Positions 9,785-52,396 of a stretch of DNA of 64,000 nucleotides are shown here, piece after piece. The stretch lies in NCBI RefSeq assembly GCF_055900595.2, contig NZ_CM148325.1. The stretch is one strand, 5' to 3'. Both the position numbers and the translations under genes were made by a program. The notes beneath the pieces were generated by a model. That model worked only from the letters and a program-made list of their open reading frames with translations. It did not search any database and was not told the DNA's origin. How positions within the stretch are numbered: position 1 is the stretch's first letter; every line of letters begins with the position of its first letter.

Positions 9785-9943
9785 ACGCTTCCCTCAGCAA
9801 AGTAAGCCCTCAGTCTAAAACTTTTCACTGTATTGTGTTTAACAGTTATAGCTTTTAGCAATTAATGCAACAGGTTAAACCTACTTTCAGCGAATACATT
9901 TTGGCGTGATCATTACCGGCATAAACCGATGAGGAGAGAAACA

Positions 9944-10201: not shown

Positions 10202-10210
10202 GCGTCTGAC

Positions 10211-10243
10211 AAGCCCTCGTGTTGAGGGCTTAATTAATTTTTT
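10211..10243. terminator. bidirectional hairpin terminator between grxA and ybjM
   Basis: stem AAGCCCTC/GAGGGCTT followed by T-run; lies between convergent stops. Confidence 0.7.
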
Positions 10244-10608
10244 CTGTGCTGTGATTTAAACAAACTGCTGATAAATAAGAAACACAGTGCCCCCAACGCA
10301 CACCAGAACACCGCACTTAATAACCATGCCAGCTCTTGCCAGAATGAGCGCGTTGGTGAAAAAAACAGCCGCATTATGAGCATCGAACAGGGTGCCGCCA
10401 GCATTGCGCCAAACAGAGGTTTCAGGACTTCTCTACGCTGTGAAAAGAAGCTGGCAACCGCTCCAGGAAGAATGAAAAACAGCAAACCAATTTCAGGATG
10501 CCCGGCAGCCCGAAAAGCGCCTTTCATGTGCGTCGCCAGAAAAAGGCACACCACAATGAAGAGGACAAAACAGCAGATTGCCCCCGCCCAACGTTGTTTA
10601 TGTTTCAC
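10234..10608 (-). CDS. ybjM: inner membrane protein YbjM
   Basis: 124 aa hydrophobic ORF in expected position. Confidence 0.85.
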   Translation of the reverse strand: MKHKQRWAGAICCFVLFIVVCLFLATHMKGAFRAAGHPEIGLLFFILPGAVASFFSQRREVLKPLFGAMLAAPCSMLIMRLFFSPTRSFWQELAWLLSAVFWCALGALCFLFISSLFKSQHRKN

Positions 10609-10877
10609 TCGTTCCTCCTGACACTGCGTCTATCGAACACATTTTTCGCCAGTGTGGCGTTCAGTAAGATAAAGCCGCTTCGCATTCCATGCTAATATAG
10701 GCCAACGCAATTCATATAGCCGTTGATACCTAATGTGATTACACTAGTAAAATATATTGTTACTTTACTATCGTTTAGGTGCGCTGAATGAATCTGCGCC
10801 CTGAATTCTGGTAAAAAACATTATCGTAAATTACCATTTCTTTCAACAGCTTACTAGTAAACAAGAAGTTAGCCTCC

Positions 10878-12563: not shown

Positions 12564-12605
12564 AACTGAAGTTGCCCTGAAAATGAAATTTTTTTGCACA
12601 ACCGC

Positions 12606-12634
12606 AGAACTTTTCCTCAGGGCATCAGTCTTAA
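12606..12634 (+). promoter_or_regulatory. sigmaE-type promoter of rybB
   Basis: GAACTT at 12607..12612, 16-nt spacer, TCTTA at 12629..12633, about 6 nt before the sRNA 5' end. Confidence 0.6.
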
Positions 12635-12639
12635 TTAGT

Positions 12640-12718
12640 GCCACTGCTTTTCTTTGATGTCCCCATTTTGTGGAGCCCATCAACCCCGCCATTTCGGTTC
12701 AAGGTTGGTGGGTTTTTT
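12640..12718 (+). ncRNA. rybB: RybB small RNA (sigmaE-dependent, Hfq-binding, OMP mRNA repressor)
   Basis: GCCACTGCTTTTCTTTGATGTCCCC... ending in hairpin CCCATCAACC/GGTTGGTGGG plus TTTTTT; matches remembered RybB sequence and its ybjL-rcdA intergenic location. Confidence 0.85.
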
Positions 12719-12737
12719 GTTATCTAAAATTTATCTA

Positions 12738-13274
12738 CTACCCGGCAACCCTCTCAACCATCCTCAAAATCTCCTCGCGCGATAGCGGCTTACGGTCGGT
12801 GACAAAATGCAGCGTCATCCCCTCAATAAACGCATCAAGCGCGCGGGCGGTTCCGGGTTCAAACCATTGTTCGAGCGTTTGCTGACTGCGCTGCATCCAG
12901 TTTTGCATTACCGTTTTTAATAGCGGTTTTCGGCTAGCCAGCGCGTAGAGCTGGTACATCAGCTCCATGTTATCCGGCGTTGCAACCTGTGAGCTGTAGA
13001 TCATATCGGTGATAGCCTGGCATGCGCCCGGAGCATCACTAACATCGCTAAAAAATGCCTGATATTGCCGGGACATGATCTCAGTAAAACTGCTGAACGC
13101 CTCCAGCAACAACTCATCAATTCCTGAAAAATAGTAGGTCATCGACCCCAACGGTACCCCGGCAAGGGTAGCAATTTTGCGGTGCGTAACGGCATGTATT
13201 CCGTAAAGTTTCACCGCCTCCAGCGTGGCCTGGATAATTTTTTCTCGCCGTTGCGGATCGTTAGCGCGACGCAT
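12738..13274 (-). CDS. rcdA: TetR-family transcriptional regulator RcdA (YbjK)
   Basis: 178 aa from ATG at 13274; N-terminal TetR HTH. Confidence 0.9.
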
Positions 13275-13357
13275 GTCATTTCCTCTCTCTGCAATTGTGT
13301 ACAAATGTACACAACCTTGCTAATGTTGTCTTCCCTCTTCTTATTTTGACGTGATCT

Positions 13358-14566
13358 ATGACCGTAAATTCTTCACGTAATGCATTGAAACGCCGAACCT
13401 GGGCGCTGTTTATGTTCTTCTTTTTGCCGGGCCTGTTAATGGCGTCCTGGGCAACTCGTACACCTGCTATCCGCGATATTCTTTCTGTTTCGATCGCTGA
13501 AATGGGCGGAGTCCTCTTTGGTCTGTCGATCGGTTCAATGAGCGGTATTCTCTGCTCGGCGTGGTTAGTGAAACGCTTTGGGACGCGGAATGTCATCCAG
13601 GTCACGATGTCCTGCGCATTGATCGGGATGATGATATTAAGTCTGGCACTCTGGCTGACATCGCCCCTGCTCTTTGCCGTTGGTCTCGGCGTCTTTGGGG
13701 CAAGTTTTGGTTCTGCGGAAGTGGCGATAAACGTTGAAGGTGCTGCCGTTGAGCGAGAAATGAATAAGACGGTTTTGCCGATGATGCACGGTTTTTATAG
13801 CCTGGGCACGCTGGCAGGCGCTGGTGTCGGGATGGCACTGACGGCCTTTGGCGTTCCGGCAACGGTGCACATTTTATTGGCGGCGCTGGTAGGCATCGCG
13901 CCTATTTATATCGCCATTCAGGCAATCCCTGACGGTACGGGCAAAAATGCTGCCGATGGCACCCAGCATGGTGAAAAAGGCGTACCTTTTTATCGGGATA
14001 TCCAGTTGCTGCTGATTGGTGTTGTGGTACTGGCGATGGCCTTTGCCGAAGGTTCTGCCAACGACTGGTTACCCTTATTAATGGTTGACGGTCACGGTTT
14101 TAGCCCTACTTCCGGCTCGCTGATTTATGCCGGTTTTACCCTGGGGATGACTGTTGGACGCTTTACCGGCGGTTGGTTCATCGACCGTTATAGTCGCGTT
14201 GCCGTGGTTCGGGCCAGTGCACTGATGGGAGCGTTGGGTATTGGGCTGATTATTTTTGTCGATAGCGCCTGGGTCGCTGGGGTGTCTGTTGTACTTTGGG
14301 GACTGGGGGCCTCGCTGGGCTTCCCGCTGACCATTTCTGCCGCCAGCGATACCGGCCCCGATGCACCGACCCGCGTCAGCGTAGTGGCGACGACCGGTTA
14401 TCTGGCTTTCCTCGTCGGGCCGCCGCTGCTGGGCTATCTCGGCGAACATTATGGATTACGTAGTGCAATGCTGGTTGTACTGGCGCTGGTTATTCTTGCG
14501 GCTATTGTCGCGAAAGCCGTCGCCAAACCCAATACCAAAACGCAGACGGCGATGGAGAATAGTTGA
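13358..14566 (+). CDS. ybjJ: MFS transporter YbjJ
   Basis: 402 aa, 12-TM-like hydrophobic profile. Confidence 0.9.
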
Positions 14567-15381
14567 TGAGCATTAAATTAATTGCGGTTGACATGGATGG
14601 TACTTTCTTAAGCGATCAAAAAACCTATAACCGTGAGCGGTTTATGGCTCAGTATCAGCAGATGAAAGCACAAGGCATTCGCTTTGTGGTCGCCAGCGGG
14701 AATCAATATTATCAGTTAATCTCTTTCTTCCCTGAAATTGCTAATGAAATTGCCTTTGTGGCTGAAAACGGCGGTTGGGTTGTAAGCGAAGGCAAAGATG
14801 TTTTTAATGGCGAGCTGTCGAAGGATGCGTTTGCTACTGTGGTGGAACATTTACTGACGCGCCCAGAAGTGGAAATTATTGCCTGCGGAAAAAATAGCGC
14901 CTATACCCTCAAAAAATATGACGATGCCATGAAAACGGTGGCGGAAATGTATTATCACCGTCTGGAATACGTCGATAACTTTGATAATTTAGAAGATATC
15001 TTCTTTAAGTTTGGCCTGAATCTTTCCGATGAACTGATTCCACAAGTGCAAAAAGCATTACATGAGACCATCGGCGATATTATGGTGCCGGTCCACACCG
15101 GCAACGGCAGCATCGATCTGATTATCCCCGGCGTACATAAAGCGAATGGCCTGCGCCAACTTCAGAAATTATGGGGAATAGACGACAGCGAAGTGGTGGT
15201 CTTCGGCGATGGTGGTAACGATATTGAGATGCTGCGTCAGGCAGGCTTTAGTTTTGCGATGGAAAATGCTGGCAGCGCGGTCGTCGCAGCGGCAAAATAC
15301 CGGGCAGGCTCCAATAATCATGAAGGTGTACTGGATGTGATCGATAAAGTTCTTAAACACGAAGCGCCTTTTGATCAATAA
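14566..15381 (+). CDS. ybjI: HAD-family (Cof-type) phosphatase YbjI
   Basis: 271 aa from ATG at 14566, overlapping ybjJ TGA by 1 nt; DMDGTF HAD motif I; paralog of YbiV. Confidence 0.88.
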   Translation: MSIKLIAVDMDGTFLSDQKTYNRERFMAQYQQMKAQGIRFVVASGNQYYQLISFFPEIANEIAFVAENGGWVVSEGKDVFNGELSKDAFATVVEHLLTRPEVEIIACGKNSAYTLKKYDDAMKTVAEMYYHRLEYVDNFDNLEDIFFKFGLNLSDELIPQVQKALHETIGDIMVPVHTGNGSIDLIIPGVHKANGLRQLQKLWGIDDSEVVVFGDGGNDIEMLRQAGFSFAMENAGSAVVAAAKYRAGSNNHEGVLDVIDKVLKHEAPFDQ

Positions 15382-15466
15382 AAACGGTAGCACGCCCGGC
15401 AACACAAAGCCTGAATGAAGGCTGCATAATTCGCAGAAATTAACCCGCTGCATTATTTCAGGCGAA

Positions 15467-15751
15467 ATGATTATGAGAAATTGTCTACTGTTGGGCGCGC
15501 TTTTAATGGGCTTTACTGGTGTGGCGATGGCGCAAAGTGTCACCGTCGATGTGCCGAGTGGATACAAAGTGGTTGTGGTCCCTGATTCAGTCAGCGTTCC
15601 ACAAGCAGTCAGCGTCGCGACTGTGCCGCAAACCGTCTATGTGGCTCCTGCGCCAGCTCCGGCTTACCGCCCGCATCCGTATGTTCGCCATCTTGCCAGC
15701 GTAGGTGAAGGGATGGTTATCGAACACCAGATTGATGACCATCACCATTAA
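15467..15751 (+). CDS. ybjH: uncharacterised secreted protein YbjH
   Basis: 94 aa with signal peptide, V/P-rich repeats and C-terminal HHH. Confidence 0.8.
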   Translation: MIMRNCLLLGALLMGFTGVAMAQSVTVDVPSGYKVVVVPDSVSVPQAVSVATVPQTVYVAPAPAPAYRPHPYVRHLASVGEGMVIEHQIDDHHH

Positions 15752-15755
15752 TTTG

Positions 15756-15793
15756 AAAATGCCTGATTGCTTTGCGCAACCAGGCATTTTTTT
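15756..15793. terminator. bidirectional terminator between ybjH and mdfA
   Basis: stem AATGCCTG/CAGGCATT followed by TTTTTTT. Confidence 0.75.
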
Positions 15794-17024
15794 ACCCTTC
15801 GTGCGAATTACCCATCTGTTTATCTTTTAAAAAGATAACCATCAGCAGCAGCCACAAAATCCCGTTGGCAAGGTTGAAGAGATTAAACAGGCCATTTCCC
15901 CCATTCAGCCAGGCATGTTTGCTGATTTCAATACCGACGGTAAAAATAAGCATTTGCAACATTCCCATCGCCGCAGAAACCGTACCTTTACTCATATCGC
16001 TGGCAAACAGGGTCAATCGCACCAGTCCCGCATTCGCCAGGCCAATACCGAAAGCATAAATACTTAACCCGGCGGTCATCCACAAATACGCGTGCGATGA
16101 GATAACCGTTGCCGCAGCAGCGACCAACAGGCCAATCATAATCGGCCAGCCGCCCATAATAATCAATGAACGTACGGTGCGGCGCGAGGTCAGACGCGCT
16201 AGCAGCAAGTTACCCGCAATTAATGCCCCGAAAATAGGCACTTGCAGCAAGCCATATTCATAACTGCTCAACTGCTCGCCGGTAATGATGATAATCGGCG
16301 ACTGGGCGATCCACGCCAGCAACGGCAGGCTAACGAATCCCAGCGCCAGTGCCCCTGCCACAAAGCGACCGTTCTTCAGCACCAGCTTATAGTCACGACC
16401 GAGTTCTTTCAGCGACAGTTTCTCGCCTATACGCGTGGCGGTTTCAGGCATGGCTCGTTGCAGACCGAAAAAGGAGATCGCTGCCAATGAGGCAAACAAG
16501 ACGAACATCCCTTCCCAGGGCAGCACATGGATCCACGCCGCGCCCACCAGCGGACCAAGTAGCGGAGCAATCAGCGCCACGTTCGCCATCAGCGCGGTGA
16601 TCTTGATACAAACCGCCTCTTCGAAGGACTCCTGAATTGCGGCGTAACCCACAGCGCCAATGAAACAGAGGCTTATGCCCTGCAAGAAGCGCAACAGCGT
16701 GAATTGTTCAATGTTTTGCGCCAGTAATATCGCCAGACAAGTGATGATAAACCACACTACCCCCGCCAGCATCACCGGACGGCGACCAATACGATCCGAC
16801 AGTGGTCCCAGCAGCCACTGTAAAAACATCCCGCCCGCCAGATACGCGGTCATCGAAGTAGGAACCCAATCAATGCCCGCCTGATACTGCTCCACCACGG
16901 CCAACATGCCGGGTTGAATCATATCGTTGCCGATATAGGTTGAAAATTCGTAAAGCACCAGACAGAGAGGGAAAAGTAACGCCTGACGTCCAAGCCTGGC
17001 ACCGGAAGCTAATCTATTTTGCAT
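15792..17024 (-). CDS. mdfA: multidrug efflux MFS transporter MdfA (Cmr)
   Basis: 410 aa from ATG at 17024 ([20 protein letters not shown]...). Confidence 0.93.
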
Positions 17025-17309
17025 GCAATTTCTTCGCCAATAATAATCGCGCAAAGTTTAATAAAAGCGCAGCTAACGAGAAAGCGAATTTTGTAGCTGA
17101 AACTTCGGTTAAGCACATTCTTACATTATTGCGAGTATAGCTACGCTTTCTTTAAGTTTTATTTAACCTATGCTCGTTACAATCAGCCACCGTAAACAGG
17201 GCCGCTTGAGGGAAATAAGACGATGCCGCTTTACCCAGTTTAACCTGCACTTTATTCTCAACGACTTGCCTGTATTGGCTCCCTTTTAATCACTTTGCGT
17301 CGGGAAGTT

Positions 17310-17906
17310 ATGCTGGAAAATTTGAATCTCTCTCTATTCTCTCTTATTAACGCGACGCCAGACTCTGCGCCGTGGATGATCTCGTTGGCGATTTTTATTG
17401 CTAAAGATTTGATTACCGTGGTGCCGCTGCTGGCCGCAGTACTTTGGTTGTGGGGGCTTACAGCACAACGGCAACTGGTGATAAAAATCGCAATCGCGCT
17501 AGTCGTCAGCCTGTTAGTGTCCTGGACGATGGGGCATCTTTTCCCACACGACCGACCCTTTGTCGAGAATATCGGCTATAACTTCCTGCATCATGCGGCG
17601 GATGACTCATTCCCGAGCGATCATGGTACGGTAATTTTCACCTTTGCACTGGCATTTTTATGCTGGCATCGCCTGTGGTCCGGTTCCCTTTTAATGGTAC
17701 TGGCTGTTGTCATTGCCTGGTCGCGCGTTTATCTTGGCGTGCACTGGCCGCTGGATATGCTCGGTGGATTGCTGGCAGGTATGATTGGCTGCCTTAGCGC
17801 TCAGATTATCTGGCAAGCGATAGGGCATAAACTCTATCAACGTCTGCAATCATGGTATCGCTTCTGTTTTGCATTACCGATCCGCAAAGGCTGGGTGCGT
17901 GACTGA
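17310..17906 (+). CDS. ybjG: undecaprenyl-diphosphate phosphatase YbjG (PAP2 family)
   Basis: 198 aa from ATG at 17310; PAP2 motifs (PSDHG, SRVYLGVHWPLD). Confidence 0.9.
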   Translation: MLENLNLSLFSLINATPDSAPWMISLAIFIAKDLITVVPLLAAVLWLWGLTAQRQLVIKIAIALVVSLLVSWTMGHLFPHDRPFVENIGYNFLHHAADDSFPSDHGTVIFTFALAFLCWHRLWSGSLLMVLAVVIAWSRVYLGVHWPLDMLGGLLAGMIGCLSAQIIWQAIGHKLYQRLQSWYRFCFALPIRKGWVRD

Positions 17907-17963
17907 TCTCTGCTAAAAAGTGTAGTATTGAGCGGCTCGCTTCAATAACTATTCAGAGGGATT

Positions 17964-18722
17964 ATGGAAACACGTCGCGAAGAGCGTATCGGGCAACTGC
18001 TGCAAGAATTAAAACGCAGCGATAAGTTACATCTTAAAGACGCCGCCGCCCTGCTTGGGGTTTCGGAGATGACGATTCGTCGCGATCTGAACAACCACAG
18101 CGCCCCCGTCGTTTTGCTTGGCGGCTATATTGTTCTGGAACCGCGCAGCGCCAGCCATTATCTGTTAAGCGATCAAAAATCCCGTCTGGTAGAGGAAAAA
18201 CGCCGGGCGGCAAAACTGGCTGCGACGCTGGTAGAACCCGATCAGACCCTCTTTTTTGACTGTGGCACCACCACACCGTGGATTATTGAAGCGATTGATA
18301 ATGAAATCCCTTTTACCGCCATTTGTTATTCGCTAAATACCTTTCTGGCACTGAAAGAGAAACCTCATTGCCGCGCGTTTCTTTGCGGTGGTGAATTTCA
18401 CGCCAGCAACGCCATTTTCAAACCCATCGATTTTCAGCAAACGCTGAATAATTTTTGCCCGGATATCGCTTTTTATTCCGCGGCGGGGGTGCATGTCAGT
18501 AAGGGCGCTACCTGTTTTAATCTTGAAGAGTTGCCGGTAAAACACTGGGCCATGTCGATGGCGCAAAAGCATGTGCTGGTTGTCGACCACAGTAAATTTG
18601 GCAAGGTGCGTCCGGCACGCATGGGTGACCTGAAACGCTTTGATATTGTAGTGAGCGATTGTTGCCCGGAAGATGAGTATGTGAAGTACGCGCAGACGCA
18701 GCGTATTAAGTTGATGTATTAA
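17964..18722 (+). CDS. deoR: deoxyribose operon repressor DeoR
   Basis: 252 aa, N-terminal HTH, DeoR family. Confidence 0.93.
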   Translation: METRREERIGQLLQELKRSDKLHLKDAAALLGVSEMTIRRDLNNHSAPVVLLGGYIVLEPRSASHYLLSDQKSRLVEEKRRAAKLAATLVEPDQTLFFDCGTTTPWIIEAIDNEIPFTAICYSLNTFLALKEKPHCRAFLCGGEFHASNAIFKPIDFQQTLNNFCPDIAFYSAAGVHVSKGATCFNLEELPVKHWAMSMAQKHVLVVDHSKFGKVRPARMGDLKRFDIVVSDCCPEDEYVKYAQTQRIKLMY

Positions 18723-18729
18723 CAACGAA

Positions 18730-18760
18730 TAACCGGATGACGTTTCGCGCCATCCGGTTA
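18730..18760. terminator. hairpin between convergent deoR and dacC
   Basis: 10-bp stem TAACCGGATG/CATCCGGTTA; no strong T-run. Confidence 0.5.
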
Positions 18761-18768
18761 TCAGAAGA

Positions 18769-19971
18769 TTAAGAGAACCAGCTGCCGAACCACTGATGGA
18801 ATTTCATCATCACGAAATCCCACATCCGACCAAAGAATCCACCCTCTTCCACATTTTCCATCACGATCAGCGGGCGCTGTTCAATGGATTTACCGTTAAG
18901 CTGGAAATCAATGGTGCCGACAACCTGACCTTTTTTCAGCGGTGCGGTAAGCTGCGGTTCCGTTAACGTATAACTCGCTTTCAGGTTTTTCAGCTGCCCA
19001 CGCGGTATGGTCACGGATCCCGCTTCGCCTGCCCCGAGATTCACTTCGCTCTTATCACCAAACCAGACGCGCTGAGTCACAAAGGTGGCATCAGGTTTAA
19101 TTGGCGTCACGGTTTCAAAGAAGCGGAAACCCCAGGTCAATAATTTCTCAGACTCATTAAAACGGATACGGTCAGTTTTCGCCCCCAGCACTACGGAGAT
19201 TAAACGCATATCGCCCTGGGTAGCAGAAGCAACCAGATTATATCCCGCGCCTGCCGTGGTTCCTGTCTTCATGCCATCAACATTCAGATTGCTGCTCCAC
19301 AGCAGACGGTTACGGTTAGGCTGACGAATTTTGTTGAAGGTGAACTCTTTCTCTTTATGAATGGCGTACTCTTCTGGCACATCGTGAATCAGTGCTTTAC
19401 CCAGCAATGCCATATCGCGTGCGGTACTGAACTGCCCCGGCGCATCCAGACCGTGCACCGTCTGGAAGGTCGTGTTGGTCAGCCCCAGTTTTTTGGCATA
19501 ACCATTCATCAAACCAATAAATGACTCCTGGCTCCCGGCAACGTAATCAGCCAGCGCAATACAGGCGTCATTACCGGACTGGATAATCACGCCTTTGTTC
19601 AAGTCTGCCACCGAAACCTGATCGCCTGGTTTGAGGAACATTACCGACGAACCACGCAGTGCCGGGTTTCCCGTCGCCCAGGCATCTTTACCGACCGTCA
19701 CCATATCGGTGAGTTTAATCTTATCGGCCTTAAGCGCCTGCCCAACCACATAGCTGGTCATGATTTTAGTCAGGCTCGCGGGGTCCAGTTTCTCATCCGC
19801 ATTGCCTTCTGCCAGCACTTTACCGCTGGCGTAATCCATTAAAATCCATGCACGCGCATCCACGCTCGGCGCTTCAACGGTTTGTTCCGCCGCGAATGCC
19901 GTTGGGGCAAAAAGGAATAAAAATGCAGAACCCGCTGCAAGACCACGAAGGAGAGAGGAGTATTGCGTCAT
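18769..19971 (-). CDS. dacC: D-alanyl-D-alanine carboxypeptidase DacC (PBP6)
   Basis: 400 aa from ATG at 19971; signal peptide, SxxK (ASLTK) and KTG motifs. Confidence 0.93.
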
Positions 19972-20217
19972 AAATGCCACCCGAGTATCCATTCAAAAAA
20001 AATACGTTATATCGCCGTATGATAAGTTCGGTGATTAATAACGCACACACAAACTTAAAGAAACCGTAAGTTGGTAAAGTTTTTAAAGTTTATGCAATAT
20101 CCTGCCGCTTCGCTGCTTCTGCCGTCATTTTTTTGCCAGCTGTTGCTTAAAAGTTAACTTTACTTCACCATCAAAGTCCTGTTCAGCCTGTGGCTGCCTG
20201 TCGGAAAAGGGGTAAGT

Positions 20218-20844
20218 ATGATTACGCTGTGGGGTCGGAATAATTCAACCAACGTAAAAAAAGTATTGCTGACGCTCGAAGAACTGGAACTACCTTATGA
20301 GCAAATTCTCGCGGGCCGTGAGTTTGGGGTAAACCACGATGCTGATTTTCTGGCGATGAACCCTAACGGGCTGGTGCCGTTGTTGCGTGACGACGAAAGT
20401 GATCTCATTCTTTGGGAATCAAACGCCATTGTCCGCTATCTGGCGGCACAGTATGGGCAAAACCTCCTGTGGATCGACTCACCGGCACGCCGTGCAGAAG
20501 CGGAAAAATGGATGGACTGGGCAAACCAGACGCTCAGTAATGCCCACCGCGGGATCCTGATGGGATTAGTCAGAACACCACCGGAAGAGCGCGATCAGGC
20601 CGCCATTGATGCCAGTTGCAAAGAGTGTGACGCCCTGTTTGCCCTGCTCGATGCGGAACTGGCAAAAGTAAAATGGTTCTCTGGCGACGAGTTTGGTGTG
20701 GGCGATATCGCCATCGCACCGTTCATCTACAATTTATTTAACGTTGGCCTGACCTGGACACCGCGTCCAAATCTGCAACGCTGGTATCAGCAACTCACTG
20801 AACGCCCCGCAGTGCGCAAAGTGGTGATGATCCCCGTTAGCTAA
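20218..20844 (+). CDS. gstB: glutathione S-transferase GstB (YliJ)
   Basis: 208 aa GST fold. Confidence 0.9.
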
Positions 20845-21956
20845 TTGCGTGGGCTAACTTTAAGTAATTCCCCACTGGACTCGTCGGTGAGAACGTATAA
20901 ATAACCGTCGGGTCCAGTACGAACATCACGAATTCGCTGCCCTCTGTCCGTTAAAATACGGCCATCTTCTGTCACTTTGTCGCCGTTGACGCTCATCACA
21001 ATGACATCTTTATCTTTCAGCGCGCCAATAAATAATTTTTGCTGCCACTGGGGGAATTTATCGCTGTTATAGAAGGCCATGCCGCTCACGGCGGGCGAAT
21101 CTTTCCAGTAAAAAATAGGTTGCTCGGTCCCGGCGACGATCTCCCCTTTCGCTTCCGGTATTTTAAAGCCTGAATAATTGATTCCCCAGGTTGCCAGCGG
21201 CCAGACGTAGTTTTTGCCTTTTTGCGGGATATTAATTTCATCACCACCGCGTGGGCCATGTTCATTCAGCCACAGTGCATTACTCCACGGATTCATCGCC
21301 ATTCCTTGCGGGTTACGAATACCATAAGACCAGATCTCGGCGCGTGCATCGGATCTCCTGGCAAAAGGATTATCATCCGGGATCTCGCCCTGGTCAGTAA
21401 GACGCACCAGTTTGCCCTGTAATTTATCCAGATCCTGCGCCGTCGGGCGCTGATTGTTTTCGCCCAGAGCAATAAAAAGATAACCTTTACCGTCGAATAC
21501 CAGCCGCCCACCAAAATGGTTGCCGGTAGACAGTTTTGGCATCTGGCGAAAAATGGTGCGGAAGTCGGTCACTTTTGAAAGATCATCACTTAAACGACCA
21601 TACCCCACGGCAGTTCCGGCTTTGCCATCATCGCCAACTTCGGAATAGCTTAACCAGATGCGGCGCGACTGGGCAAAATCAGGTGCTAAAGCCACATCCA
21701 TTAAGCCGCCCTGCCCGTGCGCCCAAACTTCCGGCACTCCGGAAAGCGGCGCAGATAATCCTTTTCCTGCTTGCCAGCGACGCAACTCACCGCCGCGCAG
21801 GGTGATTAACATGCCGTGATTATCGGGTAAAAAGGCCAGCGCCCAGGGGTGATCGAGTTTGTCTTGCAGTACTTCGACATTTACCGTTGCAGGAGCTGCC
21901 CAGAGAGCAGAAGAAAGACAGATAAGGGGCACAAGGAAAAAGGATTGTCTCTGCAT
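20841..21956 (-). CDS. yliI: PQQ-dependent aldose sugar dehydrogenase YliI
   Basis: 371 aa with signal peptide; stop codon shares CTAA tetranucleotide with gstB stop. Confidence 0.9.
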
Positions 21957-22036
21957 AACGCCTCCAGATTGACTCTGGCTTAAAGCGTAGTCAGTGAAGG
22001 CGATAACAAATTCATTTTTACAAAAACTTAAATATG

Positions 22037-22061
22037 AAGGGGGAGACGCTTTCTCCCCCTT
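22037..22061 (-). terminator. hairpin immediately downstream of bssR
   Basis: stem AAGGGGGAGA/TCTCCCCCTT adjacent to bssR stop. Confidence 0.5.
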
Positions 22062-22066
22062 TGTTT

Positions 22067-22450
22067 TCAGGCCTTCTCAAGCATGGCATGTTTCTGCAGG
22101 CTCTGGATACTCAGCGTTAAGCTCATCAGACAATTTTCAAGCTTATCGGCGTTGACGGTAATAACAGTCGGGCAATCATGGTGCCCACTCATCAAACATA
22201 CTGCGGCTGTCGCTAATGCTTCTTCAGCATGATGAAGAGCACTCCACTCTTCCTGATCCAGATGAAGATTCAACCGCAGCGATTTATCGTGCAGTTCGCG
22301 ATTCAGTTTAAAAAAGTTATCTCGTAGATGATTGCTTTCGCTGACGGACATGTATCCTTTTGCCTTCCTCAGTTGCACGTATGCAGCGAGGTCAACGCGT
22401 GCGTCGATCAACCGGTTCAGCAGATCGATTCGCTGTCTGTCAACGAACAT
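22067..22450 (-). CDS. bssR: biofilm regulator BssR (YliH)
   Basis: 127 aa from ATG at 22450 (MFVDRQRIDLLNRLID...). Confidence 0.88.
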   Translation of the reverse strand: MFVDRQRIDLLNRLIDARVDLAAYVQLRKAKGYMSVSESNHLRDNFFKLNRELHDKSLRLNLHLDQEEWSALHHAEEALATAAVCLMSGHHDCPTVITVNADKLENCLMSLTLSIQSLQKHAMLEKA

Positions 22451-22662
22451 ACTTCGATCCTCCTCTTTCCAGCCTTGTTGCAATTAAATAGTATGGCTAT
22501 TTATTGAGCAAAATGCTGTCCAGGATCAATTCTTCACGCCGAATTAACAAAATTTACATTTCCTTCGCCTCCGCCAGCGAATGAGATTGCGATACAAATT
22601 TTATCCAGAACTCTGTAGAATCCCTGCCCTGACCTTTCCTGTAACTGAATATTTTTTAAGCT

Positions 22663-35569: not shown

Positions 35570-36318
35570 TGGCGGAACTCAGCGATCAGGAGATGCTGCG
35601 CTACAACCGGCAAATCATTCTGCGCGGTTTTGATTTTGACGGTCAGGAGGCGCTAAAAGATTCTCGTGTGCTGATCGTCGGCCTCGGTGGACTCGGCTGT
35701 GCAGCTTCGCAGTATCTGGCAAGCGCCGGTGTCGGCAACCTGACACTGCTCGACTTCGACACGGTTTCGCTCTCGAATCTGCAACGCCAGACTCTGCACA
35801 GTGATGCCACGGTCGGGCAACCGAAGGTGGAATCCGCCCGTGACGCCCTGACGCGGATCAACCCACATATTGCGATTACACCCGTCAATGCACTGCTAGA
35901 TGACGCAGAACTTGCAGCATTGATTGCTGAACACGATCTGGTGCTCGACTGTACGGATAACGTTGCGGTACGCAATCAACTGAACGCAGGCTGTTTTGCC
36001 GCAAAGGTGCCGCTGGTTTCCGGGGCGGCAATTCGTATGGAAGGGCAAATCACGGTCTTCACTTATCAGGACGGCGAGCCTTGCTACCGCTGCCTTAGCC
36101 GTTTGTTTGGCGAAAATGCGTTAACCTGCGTAGAAGCAGGCGTGATGGCACCGTTGATCGGGGTGATTGGTTCGTTGCAGGCAATGGAGGCGATCAAACT
36201 GCTGGCAGGTTATGGCAAACCTGCCAGCGGCAAAATCATCATGTACGATGCGATGACTTGCCAGTTTCGCGAAATGAAACTGATGCGTAATCCGGGGTGC
36301 GAGGTGTGCGGGCAGTAA
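35569..36318 (+). CDS. moeB: molybdopterin-synthase adenylyltransferase MoeB
   Basis: 249 aa; ThiF/MoeB Rossmann GLGGLG motif and C-terminal CxxC pairs; start overlaps moeA stop. Confidence 0.94.
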   Translation: MAELSDQEMLRYNRQIILRGFDFDGQEALKDSRVLIVGLGGLGCAASQYLASAGVGNLTLLDFDTVSLSNLQRQTLHSDATVGQPKVESARDALTRINPHIAITPVNALLDDAELAALIAEHDLVLDCTDNVAVRNQLNAGCFAAKVPLVSGAAIRMEGQITVFTYQDGEPCYRCLSRLFGENALTCVEAGVMAPLIGVIGSLQAMEAIKLLAGYGKPASGKIIMYDAMTCQFREMKLMRNPGCEVCGQ

Positions 36319-36331
36319 TTGCCAGCCCCAG

Positions 36332-36411
36332 GCCTGATAAGTCGCGGCAAGCGTCGCATCAGGCATTTGCTCCAGACGCCAGATGCGGCGTGAACGCCTT
36401 ATCTGGCCTAC
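36332..36411. repeat. REP element cluster
   Basis: GCCTGATAAGTCGCGGCAAGCGTCGCATCAGGC and GCCAGATGCGGCGTGAACGCCTTATCTGGCCTAC. Confidence 0.8.
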
Positions 36412-36496
36412 GGTTCGGGCGCAGATTTCCAGGCGCGGCAAGCGTTGGTGCACTCCACCATGTCATCAGCAATTGATGAGGATGCAGAACGTCCGG

Positions 36497-37159
36497 TTAA
36501 ATCGACGTTCTGCCAAAAGCCCCCTGCCAGTCCTGCTCAAACTTCGCCACGGCGGCATCAACTGCCGGATAGCTAATCATCTGCTGCGCCACATCCAGTG
36601 GCAGCGTGATTGATTCACATCCTGCCAGTAAGCAATCCAGCGCCTGACGCGGGGTTTTAAAACTCGCGGCTAACACTTTCGCCTGCGGCGCATGCATTTT
36701 CAATAACTGGTGTAAATCGGTCACAGTTTGAATACCGCTACCGCCCTGAGCATCAATTCGGTTGACGTAAGGTGCAACGTACTCCGCACCTGCCAGCGCC
36801 GACAGCAGCCCTTGTGCCGCGCCATACACTGCCGTACCCAGCGTCGGAATACCTTCTGCTTTTAACATTTTAATAGCAGCCAGCCCCTCGGCAGTCACCG
36901 GAACTTTCACCACGATATCTGCAATAATAGAACGCAGTTGACGTGCATCATTCACCATCCCTTCGGCAGTGGTAGCCATTACCTGGGCAAACAGACGCCC
37001 CTGACCGCCCATCGCTTCGTGAAGCTCCGGAAGTACCACCTCCAGCGGTTTTTTACCCGCGGCGATAATACTTGGGTTAGTGGTCACACCCGCCAGCGGA
37101 AAAATACGTGACAGTGTCTTCACCGCAACAACGTCTGAAGTATCCAGATACAGTTCCAT
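36497..37159 (-). CDS. fsaA: fructose-6-phosphate aldolase 1
   Basis: 220 aa from ATG at 37159 ([14 protein letters not shown]...), transaldolase-like. Confidence 0.92.
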
Positions 37160-37289
37160 AACCATCCTCAAAATGTACTTTTTGTCTGAATGTAGACTAT
37201 CACGGGAAAACTCTCTGAACAGTTGACGCACATCAATCTAACTTTCATTCGAAAGTATTTTAATGTTTGAACGAAACAGAGAGGCAACT

Positions 37290-38189
37290 ATGATTTTCAA
37301 TATTCAGCGCTACTCGACCCATGACGGCCCCGGTATCCGCACGGTCGTTTTTCTTAAAGGCTGTTCACTGGGCTGCCGCTGGTGTCAGAACCCGGAAAGC
37401 CGCGCCCGCACGCAGGATCTGCTGTATGACGCACGTCTGTGCCTGGAAGGCTGCGAGCTGTGCGCTAAGGCCGCGCCGGAAGCGATTGAGCGCGCGCTGA
37501 ATGGTTTGCTTATTCATCGGGAAAAGTTAACCCCGGAGCATCTGACGGCGTTAACCGACTGCTGCCCGACACAGGCGTTAACCGTGTGTGGTGAAGTGAA
37601 AAGCGTTGAGGAGATCATGGCGACCGTTCTGCGCGACAAACCGTTTTACGATCGCAGCGGCGGCGGCTTAACGCTTTCCGGTGGTGAGCCGTTTATGCAG
37701 CCGGAAATGGCGATGGGGCTACTGCAAACCAGCCACGAAGCCGGTATTCATACTGCGGTAGAAACCTGTCTGCATGTGCCGTGGAAATACATCGCCCCTT
37801 CTCTGCCGTATATCGATCTGTTTCTTGCCGATTTAAAACACGTTGCCGACGTGCCGTTTAAACAGTGGACCGACGGTAACGCCGCCAGAGTGCTGGATAA
37901 CCTGAAAAAACTCGCAGCGGCGGGGAAAAAAATCATCATCCGCGTGCCGTTGATACAGGGCTTTAATGCCGATGAAACCTCTGTGAAAGCCATTACCGAT
38001 TTTGCCGCCGACGAGCTGCACGTCGGCGAAATTCATTTCCTGCCCTACCACACGTTGGGCATCAACAAATATCACTTACTTAATCTGCCCTATGACGCCC
38101 CGGAAAAACCGCTTGATGCGCCAGAACTGCTCGACTTTGCCCTGCAGTATGCCTGCCAGAAAGGGTTAACCGCGACCTTACGAGGATAA
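37290..38189 (+). CDS. ybiY: glycyl-radical enzyme activating protein YbiY (PflE)
   Basis: 299 aa from ATG at 37290; radical SAM CxxxCxxC (CSLGCRWC) plus extra Cys-rich ferredoxin-like insert. Confidence 0.9.
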
Positions 38190-38194
38190 CAACC

Positions 38195-40627
38195 ATGACC
38201 ACACTGAAACTGGACACGCTCAGCGACCGCATTAAAGCGCACAAAAATGCGCTGGTGAATATTGTGAAACCGCCGGTCTGTACCGAGCGCGCGCAGCACT
38301 ATACCGAGATGTATCAACAACATCTCGATAAGCCGATCCCGGTACGTCGCGCGCTGGCGCTGGCCCATCACCTGGCGAATCGCACCATCTGGATCAAACA
38401 CGATGAGTTGATCATCGGCAACCAGGCCAGCGAAGTTCGCGCCGCGCCGATCTTCCCGGAATATACCGTCTCCTGGATCGAAAAAGAGATTGATGATCTG
38501 GCGGATCGTCCGGGTGCAGGTTTTGCGGTGAGCGAAGAGAACAAACGCGTTCTGCATGAAGTGTGCCCTTGGTGGCGCGGTCAGACGGTACAGGATCGCT
38601 GCTATGGCATGTTTACCGATGAGCAAAAAGGCCTGCTGGCGACCGGTATCATTAAAGCGGAAGGTAATATGACCTCCGGCGATGCGCACCTGGCGGTCAA
38701 TTTCCCACTGTTGCTGGAAAAAGGGCTTGATGGTCTGCGCGAGAAAGTGGCGGAGCGCCGCATGCGTATTAACCTGACCGTGCTGGAAGATCTGCACGGC
38801 GAGCAGTTCCTGAAAGCGATTGATATCGTGTTGGTGGCGGTCAGTGAACATATTGAACGTTTCGCTGCCCTGGCGCGTGAAATGGCCGCTACCGAACCCC
38901 GCGAAAGCCGTCGCGATGAACTGCTGGCGATGGCCGAAAACTGCGACCTTATCGCCCACCAGCCGCCGCAGACTTTCTGGCAGGCGCTGCAACTGTGCTA
39001 CTTCATCCAGTTGATTTTGCAGATCGAATCCAACGGACACTCGGTATCGTTTGGTCGTATGGACCAGTATCTCTACCCGTACTATCGCCGTGATGTTGAA
39101 CTGAACCAGACACTGGATCGTGAACACGCCATCGAGATGCTGCATAGCTGCTGGTTAAAATTGCTGGAAGTGAACAAGATCCGCTCCGGCTCACACTCAA
39201 AAGCCTCTGCGGGAAGTCCGCTGTATCAGAACGTCACCATTGGCGGGCAAAATCTGGTTGATGGTCAACCAATGGACGCGGTGAATCCACTCTCTTACGC
39301 GATCCTCGAATCCTGCGGTCGCCTGCGTTCGACGCAGCCTAACCTCAGCGTGCGCTACCACGCGGGAATGAGTAACGATTTCCTCGATGCCTGTGTGCAG
39401 GTGATCCGCTGCGGCTTCGGGATGCCGGCGTTCAACAACGACGAAATTGTCATCCCGGAATTTATTAAACTCGGTATTGAACCGCAGGACGCTTACGACT
39501 ACGCAGCGATTGGTTGTATCGAAACCGCCGTCGGTGGCAAATGGGGCTATCGCTGCACCGGGATGAGCTTTATCAACTTCGCCCGCGTGATGCTGGCGGC
39601 GCTGGAAGGCGGTCGTGATGCCACCAGCGGCAAAGTGTTCCTGCCACAAGAAAAAGCGTTGTCAGCGGGTAACTTCAACAACTTCGATGAAGTGATGGAC
39701 GCGTGGGACACGCAAATCCGTTACTACACCCGTAAATCAATCGAAATCGAATATGTCGTCGACACCATGCTGGAAGAGAACGTGCACGATATTCTCTGCT
39801 CGGCGCTGGTGGATGACTGCATTGAGCGAGCGAAAAGTATCAAGCAAGGCGGCGCGAAATATGACTGGGTATCGGGCCTGCAGGTCGGCATTGCTAACCT
39901 CGGCAACAGCCTGGCGGCAGTGAAGAAACTGGTGTTTGAACAGGGCGCGATTGGTCAGCAACAACTGGCTGCCGCACTGGCGGATGACTTCGACGGCCTG
40001 ACGCACGAGCAGCTGCGTCAGCGGCTGATTAACGGCGCGCCGAAGTACGGCAACGACGATGATACTGTCGATACGCTGCTGGCTCGCGCTTATCAGACCT
40101 ATATCGACGAACTGAAGCAGTACCATAATCCGCGCTACGGTCGTGGTCCGATTGGCGGCAACTATTACGCAGGTACGTCGTCTATCTCCGCTAACGTACC
40201 GTTTGGCGCGCAGACTATGGCAACGCCGGACGGGCGTAAAGCCCACACCCCGCTGGCAGAAGGCGCAAGCCCGGCTTCCGGTACTGATCATCTTGGCCCT
40301 ACTGCGGTCATTGGCTCGGTGGGTAAACTGCCTACGGCAGCGATTCTCGGCGGCGTGTTGCTCAACCAGAAACTGAATCCGGCAACGCTGGAGAACGAAT
40401 CTGACAAGCAGAAACTGATGATCCTGCTACGTACCTTCTTTGAGGTGCATAAAGGCTGGCATATTCAGTACAACATCGTTTCCCGCGAAACGCTGCTGGA
40501 AGCGAAAAAACATCCGGATCAGTACCGCGATCTGGTGGTGCGCGTAGCGGGTTATTCCGCCTTCTTCACTGCGCTCTCTCCAGACGCACAGGACGATATC
40601 ATCGCCCGTACTGAACATATGCTGTAA
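38195..40627 (+). CDS. ybiW: glycyl radical enzyme YbiW (PflF, pyruvate formate-lyase-like)
   Basis: 810 aa; C-terminal glycyl radical motif RVAGYSA; immediately downstream of its activase. Confidence 0.92.
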
Positions 40628-46038: not shown

Positions 46039-47157
46039 CTAGCTGGCCGGGAACATAACTAACAAAACGTATCCCACCAGCGCCGCCCACAACAGCATCG
46101 GTATCGAATAAAGATGAAAACGCCACCAGATACGGCGATCGTTCGCCATCCGTAATGCAATCAAATTTGCCAGCGATCCGGGTAATAAACCAAAGCCACC
46201 GACGTTTACCGCCCATGCCAGTAATAAAGACGGTGGCACATAATTGAGGAGCAAAATCGTGCTCGGCACATTACTGATCACCTGCGATAAACCAATTGCC
46301 GTTAACCATAATCCGGGTTCGGATAAATGGCTCACATTGCTCAACACGCCCTGCAAAGCTGGCAGTTGGGTCAGCAAATGGACGTCGATAAACATCGCCA
46401 TAAATACCAGCAGCAGCGTCCAGTCCACGCTGATCACCACGCGACGAGCCAGCAGCGCAAAGCCCGCCGCTACAATCACCAGTCCCCACAGCTCTTGTTT
46501 TAACTCCAGCGCCGTCAGAAAGACGATATACAGCCCCAGACAACTCCACACCAGCCGCGGTTTCCACTCAGGTGTTTGCGCCCCCGTATGATATTGCAGC
46601 GCCTTTCCAGGGAAACAACACCAGCACAGTAGCAGGAGTGTCAGCATCATTGCGCCAGCCAGCGGTGCCATTTGGGCAATAAACCCGGCAAACGAAAGAC
46701 CAGAACGACCCCAGATAAGAATATTTTGCGGGTTGCCAATCGGCGTCAGTAGCGAACCCGCATTGACTGCTAGCGCCTCAAAAATAATCAGTCGATTAAC
46801 CGGGATCTCACACAGTCTTTTTAGTGTGATTGTCAGCGGAACAACAATAAACAGCGCGACATCGTTGGTCAGAAATGTTGAAAGCAACGCCGCCGCCAGC
46901 ACCATAAACATTGCCAGCCGACGCTCAGTAGCAAAGCGGCGCACCATTTTGCGCCCCAGCACATCAAAATAACCGCTTAACTCCACACCTTTGGTCAGCA
47001 GCATCAGGCCACTGAGGGTGATGATAGTGTGCCAGTCGATAGCAGCAAGCCAGGATTTCGGTGCAAAGGGAACGAAAAAACTTAATCCGATGCCAACAAG
47101 AATTAATAACTGAAAAAAACGATCGCCTTGCAGCGTGCGTAAAAAAGGCAGGCTCAT
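46039..47157 (-). CDS. ybiR: inner membrane transporter YbiR (ArsB/NhaD superfamily)
   Basis: 372 aa polytopic membrane protein; start overlaps mntR stop. Confidence 0.9.
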
Positions 47158-47621
47158 TTGGCACCGTGTTTCTGGGTAAACAAACGAAAGGCATCCAGCG
47201 TCTCTTCACTGACATGGTGCTCCATGCCTTCCGCGTCGCGACGAGCGATTTCCGGGCTGACGCCCAACACCAACAAGAAATTTTCGACTATCTGATGTCG
47301 CTCGCGGCTTTCCTGCGCCAGTTTCTCTCCTTCTGCCGTTAAAAACACGCCACGCCAGGGGATCATTTCAATCAGCCCCATGGTTGCCAGTCGTTTGAGC
47401 ATTTTAGCCACCGTCGGTTGCGAAACGCCCAGACGAGCAGCCATGTCCACCTGACGAGCTTCCCCCACTTCCCTGATCAAGTCAGAAATCAGCTCAACGT
47501 AATCATCAATAAGCTCGCGCCGGTGTGCCTCTCTGACCTGGCGGAACCCTTCAACGTGCTCTTCCACATTCACTAACTGCGTCACTTTTTTTGCTGTTGG
47601 CGTACCTGCGCGACGACTCAT
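47154..47621 (-). CDS. mntR: manganese-responsive transcriptional regulator MntR
   Basis: 155 aa DtxR-family regulator. Confidence 0.93.
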
Positions 47622-47730
47622 TGTGCTTCCTCATTATGGTGACGCATACATAGCGTTCTCATTTCGTGTGCACATTGTAAACCAGAGTTGCGAAGGTACA
47701 AAAAATTAACGTTTTAGCAATAGCTATATA

Positions 47731-47746
47731 ATATAGCCTGTGCTAT
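47731..47746. promoter_or_regulatory. putative MntR operator upstream of mntS
   Basis: palindrome TATAGC-CTGT-GCTATA resembling the ATAGC-N4-GCTAT core of MntR boxes, about 60 bp upstream of the mntS ATG. Confidence 0.45.
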
Positions 47747-47806
47747 ATCTGTATGTAATGCAATCATCTCTCAAGGATCGACGGGATTAGCAAGTCAGGA
47801 GGTCTT

Positions 47807-47935
47807 ATGAATGAGTTCAAGAGGTGTATGCGCGTGTTTAGTCATTCTCCCTTTAAAGTACGGTTAATGCTGCTCTCTATGTTGTGCGATATGGTCAACA
47901 ACAAACCGCAGCAAGATAAACCTTCCGATAAATAG
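47807..47935 (+). CDS. mntS: small protein MntS (manganese homeostasis, formerly rybA locus)
   Basis: 42-aa ORF MNEFKRCMRVFSHSPFKVRLMLLSMLCDMVNNKPQQDKPSDK with AGGAGG RBS; below the ORF-track length cutoff, found by eye. Confidence 0.85.
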   Translation: MNEFKRCMRVFSHSPFKVRLMLLSMLCDMVNNKPQQDKPSDK

Positions 47936-48206
47936 CGGCGTCGCGGTACGCCGCTTCACTCCTGCTTTTATGCAGGAACAACGCGTTTTGCTCTGAAAAA
48001 CCCCACTTTTTGTCGGATTTGCAATCCCCTTCGCAAAAGATTTGTTCGTCAGTAGTTGACCTGAACGGCTGCTCGCTCTATCTTCTTGCAGCCCTGCGTA
48101 TATTGCGGCTCGCGGATGCGGACCCCTTTCCCCTCTTCACGCACTCTTGCAGGTATTGACCCTTGACGCCAGGGTAAGCACATGGCGTTTGTTACGATAG
48201 TGGCAT

Positions 48207-49790
48207 ATGAATTTAACCCTCAAAGAATCGCTTGTTACCCGTAGCCGGGTATTTAGCCCGTGGACTGCGTTCTACTTTTTACAGTCGCTATTAATTAACC
48301 TCGGCTTAGGTTACCCCTTCAGTTTGCTATACACCGCCGCATTTACGGCTATTTTGCTTTTGCTATGGCGAACATTGCCTCGCGTGCAAAAAGTTCTGCT
48401 CGGCGTCAGTTCACTGGTCGCCGCTTGTTATTTCCCTTTTGCACAGGCCTACGGCGCGCCTAACTTCAATACCTTGCTGGCATTGCATTCCACCAATATG
48501 GAAGAGTCGACCGAAATCCTGACGATTTTTCCGTGGTACAGCTACCTGGTCGGCTTATTTATTTTTGCGCTCGGCGTAATAGCAATCAGGCGGAAAAAAG
48601 AGAGCGAAAAAGCGCGCTGGAATACCTTCGACAGTCTGTGTCTGGTATTCAGTGTGGCGACATTTTTTGTTGCTCCCGTGCAAAATCTGGCCTGGGGCGG
48701 CGTATTTAAACTGAAAGATACTGGCTATCCGGTATTTCGTTTTGCTAAGGATGTCATCGTCAATAATAACGAGGTGATTGAAGAGCAAGAACGGATGGCA
48801 AAACTTTCCGGAATGAAAGATACCTGGACGGTCACTGCCGTTAAGCCGAAGTATCAGACCTATGTGGTGGTGATCGGTGAAAGTGCGCGTCGCGATGCCC
48901 TCGGTGCCTTTGGCGGTCACTGGGATAATACCCCGTTTGCCAGCAGCGTTAACGGTTTGCTTTTTGCTGACTACATTGCTGCCAGTGGCTCCACACAGAA
49001 ATCGCTTGGCTTAACACTCAATCGCGTAGTCGATGGCAAACCACAGTTTCAGGATAACTTTGTCACCCTGGCAAATCGCGCGGGCTTTCAGACCTGGTGG
49101 TTTTCCAATCAGGGCCAAATCGGCGAATACGATACCGCCATCGCCAGCATCGCCAAACGGGCAGATGAAGTGTATTTCCTGAAAGACGGTAATTTTGAAG
49201 CAGATAAAAACACGAAAGACGAAGCGTTACTGGATATGACCGCGCAGGTGCTGGCGCAAGAACACTCGCAACCGCAACTGATTGTTTTACATCTGATGGG
49301 CTCACATCCACAGGCCTGCGACCGGACACAAGGCAAATACGCAACCTTTGTGCAATCGAAAGAAACGTCATGCTATCTCTATACCATGACACAAACGGAC
49401 GATTTGTTGCGTAAGCTGTACGACCAGTTACGCAATAGCGGCAGCAGCTTCTCGCTGGTTTACTTTGCGGACCACGGTCTGGCCTTTAAAGAACGCGGCA
49501 AAGACGTGCAATACCTTGCCCATGATGATAAGTATCAGCAAAATTTCCAGGTGCCTTTTATGGTCATTTCGAGCGACGATAAAGCGCATCGGGTGATTAA
49601 AGCCCGCCGTTCAGCCAATGACTTTTTAGGCTTTTTCTCGCAGTGGACGGGAATTAAAGCGAAGGAAATTAACATCAAATACCCGTTTATATCTGAGAAG
49701 AAAGCCGGGCCGATATACATCACCAACTTCCAGTTACAGAAGGTAGATTACAACCATCTCGGAACCGATATTTTCGACCCGAAACCTTAA
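48207..49790 (+). CDS. opgE: phosphoethanolamine transferase OpgE (YbiP)
   Basis: 527 aa; N-terminal TM helices plus sulfatase-like domain. Confidence 0.92.
   Translation: MNLTLKESLVTRSRVFSPWTAFYFLQSLLINLGLGYPFSLLYTAAFTAILLLLWRTLPRVQKVLLGVSSLVAACYFPFAQAYGAPNFNTLLALHSTNMEESTEILTIFPWYSYLVGLFIFALGVIAIRRKKESEKARWNTFDSLCLVFSVATFFVAPVQNLAWGGVFKLKDTGYPVFRFAKDVIVNNNEVIEEQERMAKLSGMKDTWTVTAVKPKYQTYVVVIGESARRDALGAFGGHWDNTPFASSVNGLLFADYIAASGSTQKSLGLTLNRVVDGKPQFQDNFVTLANRAGFQTWWFSNQGQIGEYDTAIASIAKRADEVYFLKDGNFEADKNTKDEALLDMTAQVLAQEHSQPQLIVLHLMGSHPQACDRTQGKYATFVQSKETSCYLYTMTQTDDLLRKLYDQLRNSGSSFSLVYFADHGLAFKERGKDVQYLAHDDKYQQNFQVPFMVISSDDKAHRVIKARRSANDFLGFFSQWTGIKAKEINIKYPFISEKKAGPIYITNFQLQKVDYNHLGTDIFDPKP

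Positions 49791-51748: not shown

Positions 51749-52396
<648 letters not shown>

Follow-up and report, generated by a model that had tools for sequence, protein, structure and literature searches.

A small open reading frame that is transcribed away from mntR in a 64,000-nucleotide stretch of DNA (the window) corresponds to mntS of Escherichia coli, lies on the RybA transcript and is preceded by an MntR operator, and we are very nearly certain that this locus is the manganese-dependent switch that has been proposed. We base this on the identity of the ORF, on its conservation as a coding sequence, on the match and conservation of the MntR boxes and on the position of these boxes relative to the annotated 5' end of the transcript, all of which were observed here. 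A sequence-only reading of the window had earlier pointed to the same small ORF, and to a palindrome upstream of it as a candidate MntR operator. For genome annotation, this is a case in which a gene of fewer than 50 codons and its operator were correctly recognised from raw sequence. Biologically it adds nothing new: the mntS gene, its repression by MntR and the inhibition of MntP by its product have all been published, and the gene is already named in RefSeq. The modest value of the present analysis lies in the map of two boxes relative to the -10 element and the transcription start, in the figures for conservation across genera, and in the observations of a prophage at the operator core and of conserved elements 5' of opgE.

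Identity and distribution of the mntS locus

The mntS coding sequence occupies 47807..47935 on the plus strand (42 aa, ATG to TAG; MNEFKRCMRVFSHSPFKVRLMLLSMLCDMVNNKPQQDKPSDK) and is preceded by the Shine-Dalgarno sequence AGGAGG at 47797..47802, 4 nt 5' of the ATG; both are at the positions that the sequence-only reading had given for the 42-aa ORF and its ribosome-binding site. The neighbouring mntR gene (47154..47621, 155 aa; K-12 b0817, annotated in RefSeq) encodes a Mn(II)-sensing regulator of the DtxR family and lies on the minus strand, and the two genes are thus divergent, as had been described. Alignment to the annotated mntS of K-12 MG1655, which had been suggested as a check, shows the ORF to be identical to b4705 in both nucleotide and amino-acid sequence (852869..852997 in the K-12 annotation, with the ATG at 852997). 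Over the region as a whole the window is 99% identical to K-12 MG1655; the mntS coding sequence and the entire promoter/operator block are identical, the alignment has no gaps at the 5' end of rybA, and the few single-base differences fall in the spacer, in the 5' UTR (47773) and in the 3' region past the hairpin described below. The K-12 locus (YP_009029995.1; named "manganase accumulation protein MntS" by NF033226) has the same operator, the same 5' UTR length and the same neighbours, ybiR-mntR<>mntS-opgE.

Against the NCBIfam equivalog model NF033226 (small_MntS; cutoff 36) the ORF reaches 96 bits, with residues 1-39 aligned to profile positions 1-40 of 41, and the mntR product scores 269 bits against the equivalog NF008273 (cutoff 153) and also matches the Pfam domains Fe_dep_repress and Fe_dep_repr_C. 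Because of the K-12 annotation and the scores against these two models, we call the locus the known mntS/rybA, and by its sequence the window is part of an E. coli chromosome. A local copy of Pfam-A gave no match for the 42-aa MntS protein, and precomputed assignments to PF26599 (MntS) are present on MntS homologues; the two results probably stem from different releases of Pfam.

To describe the distribution of the locus we used a 611-bp query (47600..48210), which finds matches with 95-100% identity in 5421 of the 5426 complete E. coli genomes. Among the matches listed, mntS, mntR and opgE are annotated in every one except that in a genome in which a prophage splits the region, where the match stops short of mntR. 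Five of the 5426 genomes show no match to the mntS region, and two of the matches among the complete assemblies are to records typed as plasmids. The remark that such a gene is easy to miss in automated annotation is therefore outdated, since mntS is annotated on every RefSeq/PGAP match listed and NCBIfam has an equivalog model of its own for MntS.

At the protein level, 136 homologues of MntS were retrieved from a set of 5.8 billion proteins. Those that carry a name are nearly all called MntS and come from Escherichia, Shigella, Salmonella, Citrobacter, Klebsiella, Kosakonia, Kluyvera, Enterobacter, Trabulsiella and Silvania, and the homologues among the matches listed (120 of 136) are all short (38-72 aa). 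For comparative work we aligned the window with seven loci, one each from Salmonella, Citrobacter, Klebsiella, Kosakonia, Kluyvera, Enterobacter and Trabulsiella, and the gene order ybiR-mntR<>mntS-opgE is present in the window and in all seven. A Shine-Dalgarno sequence is retained in each of the eight genera, with GGAGG (GGAG in Klebsiella) located 4-8 nt 5' of the ATG.

Two predicted MntR boxes upstream of mntS

We predict two adjacent MntR boxes between mntR and mntS. The proximal box B (TAATATAGCCTGTGCTATATCT, 47729..47750) has a perfect core, ATAGC-CTGT-GCTAT, at 47733..47746, and the distal box A (CGTTTTAGCAATAGCTATATAA, 47710..47731) has the core TTAGC-AATA-GCTAT at 47714..47727 (TTAGCAATAGCTAT), with one mismatch. 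The palindrome of the sequence-only reading, which had been placed about 60 bp upstream of the gene, is TATAGCCTGTGCTATA at 47732..47747; it lies inside box B, 59 nt 5' of the mntS ATG by our measurement, and can be extended to an 18-bp inverted repeat (ATATAGCCTGTGCTATAT, 47731..47748). Its interpretation as an MntR-type box holds up, but the adjacent box A (47714..47727) had been overlooked.

As references we used the MntR boxes upstream of mntH and mntP, with their letters read from K-12 promoter DNA and not from a curated database. The box upstream of K-12 mntH (AAACATAGCAAAGGCTATGTTT) and the two boxes upstream of K-12 mntP (TTAGCCAAAGCTAT and ATAGCTTAGGCTAT) all contain the core ATAGC-N4-GCTAT, which is also that of the palindrome, so that the proposed comparison with the mntH box comes out in favour of a palindrome that matches MntR sites. 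The variant half-site TTAGC of box A recurs in mntP box 1. In the 64-kb window the exact motif ATAGC-N4-GCTAT occurs only twice (47733..47746 and 51830..51843), and with at most one mismatch it occurs six times against an expectation of 1.7.

A symmetrised weight matrix of 22 bp, built from only three training sites (K-12 mntH and the two of mntP) with the mntS sites excluded, ranks box B first in the window (47729..47750, 23.2 bits), a site upstream of dps second (51826..51847, 14.7 bits) and box A third (47710..47731, 9.8 bits). When the window was shuffled 200 times, the best score of each shuffle had a mean of 12.0 (sd 2.3) and a maximum of 18.6. Box B scores higher than the best of all 200 shuffles, and the palindrome thus exceeds chance expectation. 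Box A falls below the mean of the shuffled maxima and taken alone is not significant. Since the three best matches in the 64 kb are located at promoters of known MntR targets, the matrix is validated and box A gains in credibility.

The alignment of the eight genera shows 13 of the 14 columns of the box B core to be invariant, together with 12 of the 14 columns of the box A core and 11 of the 12 columns of a block immediately 5' of the boxes (47698..47709). By comparison, 60% of the columns are invariant in mntS codons 1-33, 30% in the remainder of the mntR-mntS spacer and 26% in the rest of the 5' UTR. With box cores that are 86-93% invariant, no other element of the locus is as conserved as the operator, the coding sequence included.

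Position of the boxes relative to the promoter

The K-12 annotation places rybA (b4416) at 852725..853064 on the minus strand, with its 5' end 67 nt before the mntS ATG, and because the alignment has no gaps here, the transcription start of mntS/rybA maps to a G at 47740 on the plus strand, in the middle of the box B spacer. We placed the promoter elements from this annotated 5' end and not from a scan for consensus promoters and terminators, which called no plus-strand promoter for mntS and no hairpin after the stop codon. The probable -10 hexamer is TATAAT at 47727..47732, which ends 7 nt 5' of the start, shares bases with the right half-site of box A and adjoins the left half-site of box B, so that it sits between the two boxes; TAATAT at 47729..47734 could serve instead. 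A conserved block 5' of the boxes (ACAAAAAATTAACG, 47698..47711, plus strand) holds the best -35-like hexamer, the candidate TTAACG at 47706..47711, which has four of six consensus matches and is separated from TATAAT by a 15-nt spacer. This poor -35 element and its short spacer account for the failure of the consensus scan to call the promoter.

The centres of the two boxes are 19 bp apart, and two MntR dimers bound to them would span from about -30 to +10. With the K-12 annotation of the rybA 5' end as the basis, this layout fits a repressor that acts by promoter occlusion. It also refines the earlier placement of the operator upstream of the gene, which is right insofar as the palindrome lies 59 nt before the ATG, but which passes over the fact that the boxes overlap the -10 element and the transcription start. 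Box A and this overlap with -10 and +1 are very likely already described in the primary literature; our full-text search for the literal operator sequences gave no match.

The arrangement leads to the question of whether box A belongs to the operator. If box B alone were the MntR operator, box A would be kept as promoter sequence or as part of a phage attachment site. Its score of 9.8 bits, which is within the range of shuffled sequence, speaks for this reading; its overlap with the TATAAT -10 element, itself conserved for its own reasons, and the inclusion of its right half in a 15-bp core used by a P2-family prophage point the same way. We consider this unlikely, because TTAGC-N-ATAGCTA is invariant in eight genera although promoter spacers normally vary, because the same TTAGC half-site is found in mntP box 1, and because box A is among the three best matrix matches of the 64 kb, which are those at the promoters of published MntR targets. 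We therefore retain both boxes as the predicted operator.

The RybA transcript and its coding content

Mapped through the K-12 alignment, the 340-nt form of RybA (b4416) extends from 47740 to 48079 on the plus strand and contains mntS. The sequence-only reading was correct in describing the ORF as a small gene, but it had omitted the place of this gene inside the RybA transcript (to ~48079). RybA exists as seven species of 205 to ~400 nt, which have the same 5' end and each carry the ORF (Martin et al. 2015, PMC4361602). A G+C-rich hairpin, AGCGGCGU-CGCGGU-ACGCCGCU, at 47934..47955 on the plus strand overlaps the mntS stop codon and sits in a 46-nt fold of -18.4 kcal/mol (z = -3.5). Its stem is invariant in the eight genera, and in most of the other genera a T-rich tail comes after it (UUCAUUUUU in three of these), in contrast to UUCACUCC in E. 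coli. The hairpin likely marks the 3' end of the shortest RybA/mntS mRNA, as a terminator-like structure with a poor U-tract in E. coli, and this poor tail may lie behind the read-through forms that reach up to 48079.

The K-12 annotation keeps a noncoding RNA feature, rybA, over this region, and one may ask whether RybA itself is the functional product, acting on aromatic amino-acid genes during peroxide stress, with the ORF incidental or the RNA dual in function. Repression of aroF and aroL by RybA in a manner dependent on TyrR has been reported (Gerstle et al. 2012, cited by PMC4361602 and PMC11878033), the authors of PMC4361602 state that their data leave an sRNA role possible, and the invariant hairpin after the stop codon is accompanied by some conserved blocks in the 3' part of RybA. 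Against this stands the pattern of substitution in mntS. In the 33 codons that align without gaps, to which the codon analysis was limited, the variable columns at codon positions 1, 2 and 3 number 11, 6 and 23, about fourfold more at the third position than at the second, and when the frame is shifted the peak of variation moves to position 2 or 1, as a real reading frame predicts. The median Nei-Gojobori dN/dS is 0.11 and the mean pN/pS is 0.20, and each orthologue has a single terminal stop in-frame and 2-5 stops in the other two frames. Judging from the substitution pattern by codon position and from dN/dS, the mntS ORF is under purifying selection as a protein. With its 42 aa the protein fits the MntS length of about 41-43 aa, and it shares the conserved first two-thirds that mark the family. 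E3, C7, H13, C27 and D28, which to go by plasmid names were mutagenesis targets in Martin et al. (2015, PMC4361602), are all present in the protein encoded in the window; E3, C7, H13 and C27 are invariant in the eight genera, and position 28 is D, E or G. Conservation in relatives, on which the earlier identification of the ORF had been made to depend, is thus found in the homologues, in the synteny and in the coding signature across genera.

The RNA outside the ORF gives a different picture, in that the UTR and spacer sequences are poorly conserved (26-30% invariant). RNAalifold applied to the short transcript of the eight genera detects almost no covariation (a term of -1.42) and supports only the terminal hairpin and a small hairpin in the 5' UTR (47767..47785, plus strand; alignment columns 28-46), which is weak in E. 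coli and in which two of five pairs are kept through two-sided changes in some genera. A search of Rfam with 47500..48300 at E <= 1 returned no family for RybA. In addition, the phenotypes of MntS overproduction have been assigned to the protein and not to an sRNA, and do not depend on Hfq (Martin et al. 2015, PMC4361602). The evidence in the alignment thus favours an mRNA over a separate sRNA. We hold a primarily noncoding function to be very improbable, and RybA RNA as the exclusive explanation is essentially excluded by the selection on coding sequence, the poor conservation of the UTRs and the protein phenotypes; RybA may have an sRNA function in addition to that of the mRNA.

Manganese-dependent control and function of MntS

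For repression by MntR with manganese and for the inhibition of MntP we rely on the literature on K-12 MntS, which applies directly because the protein sequence is identical. MntR:Mn acts as a repressor of mntS transcription (PMC4361602; PMC8632737). Mn(II) represses a PmntS-eGFP reporter in the wild type but not in an mntR mutant, and complementation restores repression (PMC9806134), so that the Mn-dependent repression suggested in the sequence-only reading agrees with a published reporter fusion that responds to Mn in an mntR-dependent manner. The MntS protein binds and inhibits the Mn exporter MntP (Wright et al., bioRxiv 10.1101/2023.06.02.543501); its function is also described in PMC4361602, and according to this literature overexpression leads to Mn sensitivity. 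The suggestion that the palindrome is a chance inverted repeat and that mntS is under another factor, such as Fur or OxyR, may note that short palindromes are frequent in this AT-rich region and that a SELEX peak of sigma-S holoenzyme is reported in the rybA<>mntR spacer (PMC5493296), but its probability is negligible given a matrix score above all 200 shuffles, a core with 13 of 14 positions invariant across genera and a reporter whose repression by Mn needs mntR (PMC9806134), and published regulon data also contradict it.

With MntR as the regulator, the sequence of events would be as follows. At high intracellular Mn(II), Mn-loaded dimers of MntR, produced from the divergent neighbour gene, would bind the adjacent boxes A and B. 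Box A (47714..47727) would cover the promoter spacer and the start of TATAAT, and box B (47733..47746), centred on the transcription start at 47740, would be occupied at the same time, and the bound MntR would then block RNA polymerase and turn mntS off. That box A is occupied, and that the mechanism is steric occlusion, is suggested by the layout of the boxes. Under Mn scarcity the promoter fires, and the 67-nt leader with its strong Shine-Dalgarno sequence allows translation of the 42-aa MntS, which binds the MntP exporter, inhibits the efflux of Mn and raises the cytoplasmic level of the metal.

Comparison with other MntR-associated loci

The MntR boxes of mntH, mntP and dps have the same ATAGC-N4-GCTAT core and A/T-rich flanks as the mntS box, and those of mntH and dps, like that of mntS, overlap the core promoter, consistent with repression. 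The mntS operator differs from that of mntH in having two boxes that bracket the -10 element, 19 bp apart from centre to centre, and the outer flanks also differ (TAAT/ATCT in mntS and AAAC/GTTT in mntH). At mntP, in contrast to mntS, the boxes are located far upstream and MntR acts as an activator (reviewed in PMC8632737). In Bacillus subtilis the promoters of mneP and mneS each have several adjacent MntR boxes, which resembles the arrangement at mntS (PMC8632737; PMC11275975), but these sites serve cooperative activation of exporters rather than repression, and the sequence of the box differs from that at mntS.

MntS has been proposed to descend from an MntR-linked SitA signal peptide (bioRxiv 10.1101/2023.06.02.543501; Mol Microbiol 2024). 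The signal peptides of MntR-associated SitA proteins are, as stated in that paper, homologous to MntS and can substitute for it, and the linkage to mntR would have been inherited (bioRxiv 10.1101/2023.06.02.543501). In contrast to the SitA loci, mntS in the window stands alone, with opgE downstream and without sitABCD.

The divergent mntR gene

The stop codon of mntR and the start codon of ybiR overlap by 4 bp in an ATGA-type arrangement (47154..47157), which is the same in the seven other genera; this overlap indicates a putative mntR-ybiR operon with translational coupling. The minus strand also holds a candidate promoter for mntR at 47674..47701, consisting of TTGTAC (47701..47696), a 16-nt spacer and TACAAT (47679..47674). 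In the eight genera TACAAT is invariant, TTGTAC has one variable position and the spacer varies. If this promoter is real, boxes A and B would lie at about -53 and -72 of mntR, and Mn-MntR could modulate the mntR-ybiR operon, to which its own gene belongs, at the same time as it represses mntS. That the tandem boxes serve both divergent promoters, and that replacement of box A in a lysogen might alter the control by Mn, is a doubtful proposition at present.

A prophage at the operator core

In E. coli AHB29 (NZ_OZ547246.1) a 31.8-kb prophage of the P2 family is inserted between mntR and mntS (7616..39495). The common core of its junctions corresponds to window positions 47723..47737, GCTATATAATATAGC (GCTATAT-A-ATATAGC). 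This is the operator's inner inverted repeat, made up of the right half of box A, of TATAAT and of box B's left half. In such lysogens mntS retains its -10 element and box B, and on the mntS side phage DNA takes the place of box A and of the -35 region. The junction between the integrase gene and mntS is found in 23 of the 5426 genomes, and these are exactly the 23 with partial coverage in the 611-bp search; the window itself carries no P2-family prophage. A literature search on prophage integration at mntS/rybA returned nothing relevant, and comparison of the integrase region with a phage collection gave weak matches only (82% over 11% of the query).

Other observations in the window

NZ_CP098223.1, which matches the 611-bp query at 100%, has IS200/IS605 tnpA genes at 293..751 and 4802..5260, flanking ybiR-mntR-mntS-opgE. 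A mobile context, as these flanking elements would suggest, was rejected for the window, where ldtB and ompX directly abut the block and no IS element is found at either position.

Between mntS and opgE there is a promoter-like site, TTGACC-N17-TATCTT (48056..48084), which is kept in the eight genera. The region upstream of opgE (48041..48206) contains GCAGCCCTG, a possible hairpin CCCTTGACGCCAGGG and the invariant CACATGGCG, all conserved in the eight genera, and these elements are absent from the K-12 annotation. The region offers no covariation from which to judge structure, and its single-sequence fold is not significant (z = -1.1). A mini-uORF that starts with the ATG at 48182 is 4-5 codons long in six genera; in E. 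coli it has 20 codons and overlaps the opgE start out of frame. Like the promoter-like site, it is missing from the K-12 annotation.

The second exact motif in the window belongs to a perfect ATAGC-N4-GCTAT box, ACACATAGCCGGTGCTATACTT, at 51826..51847 (core 51830..51843), which precedes the dps ATG (51893) by about 50 bp and shares bases with a -10-like hexamer, TATACT. Since dps has been published as an MntR target (Yamamoto et al. 2011, as cited in PMC5553809), this box is probably the known MntR site of that gene.
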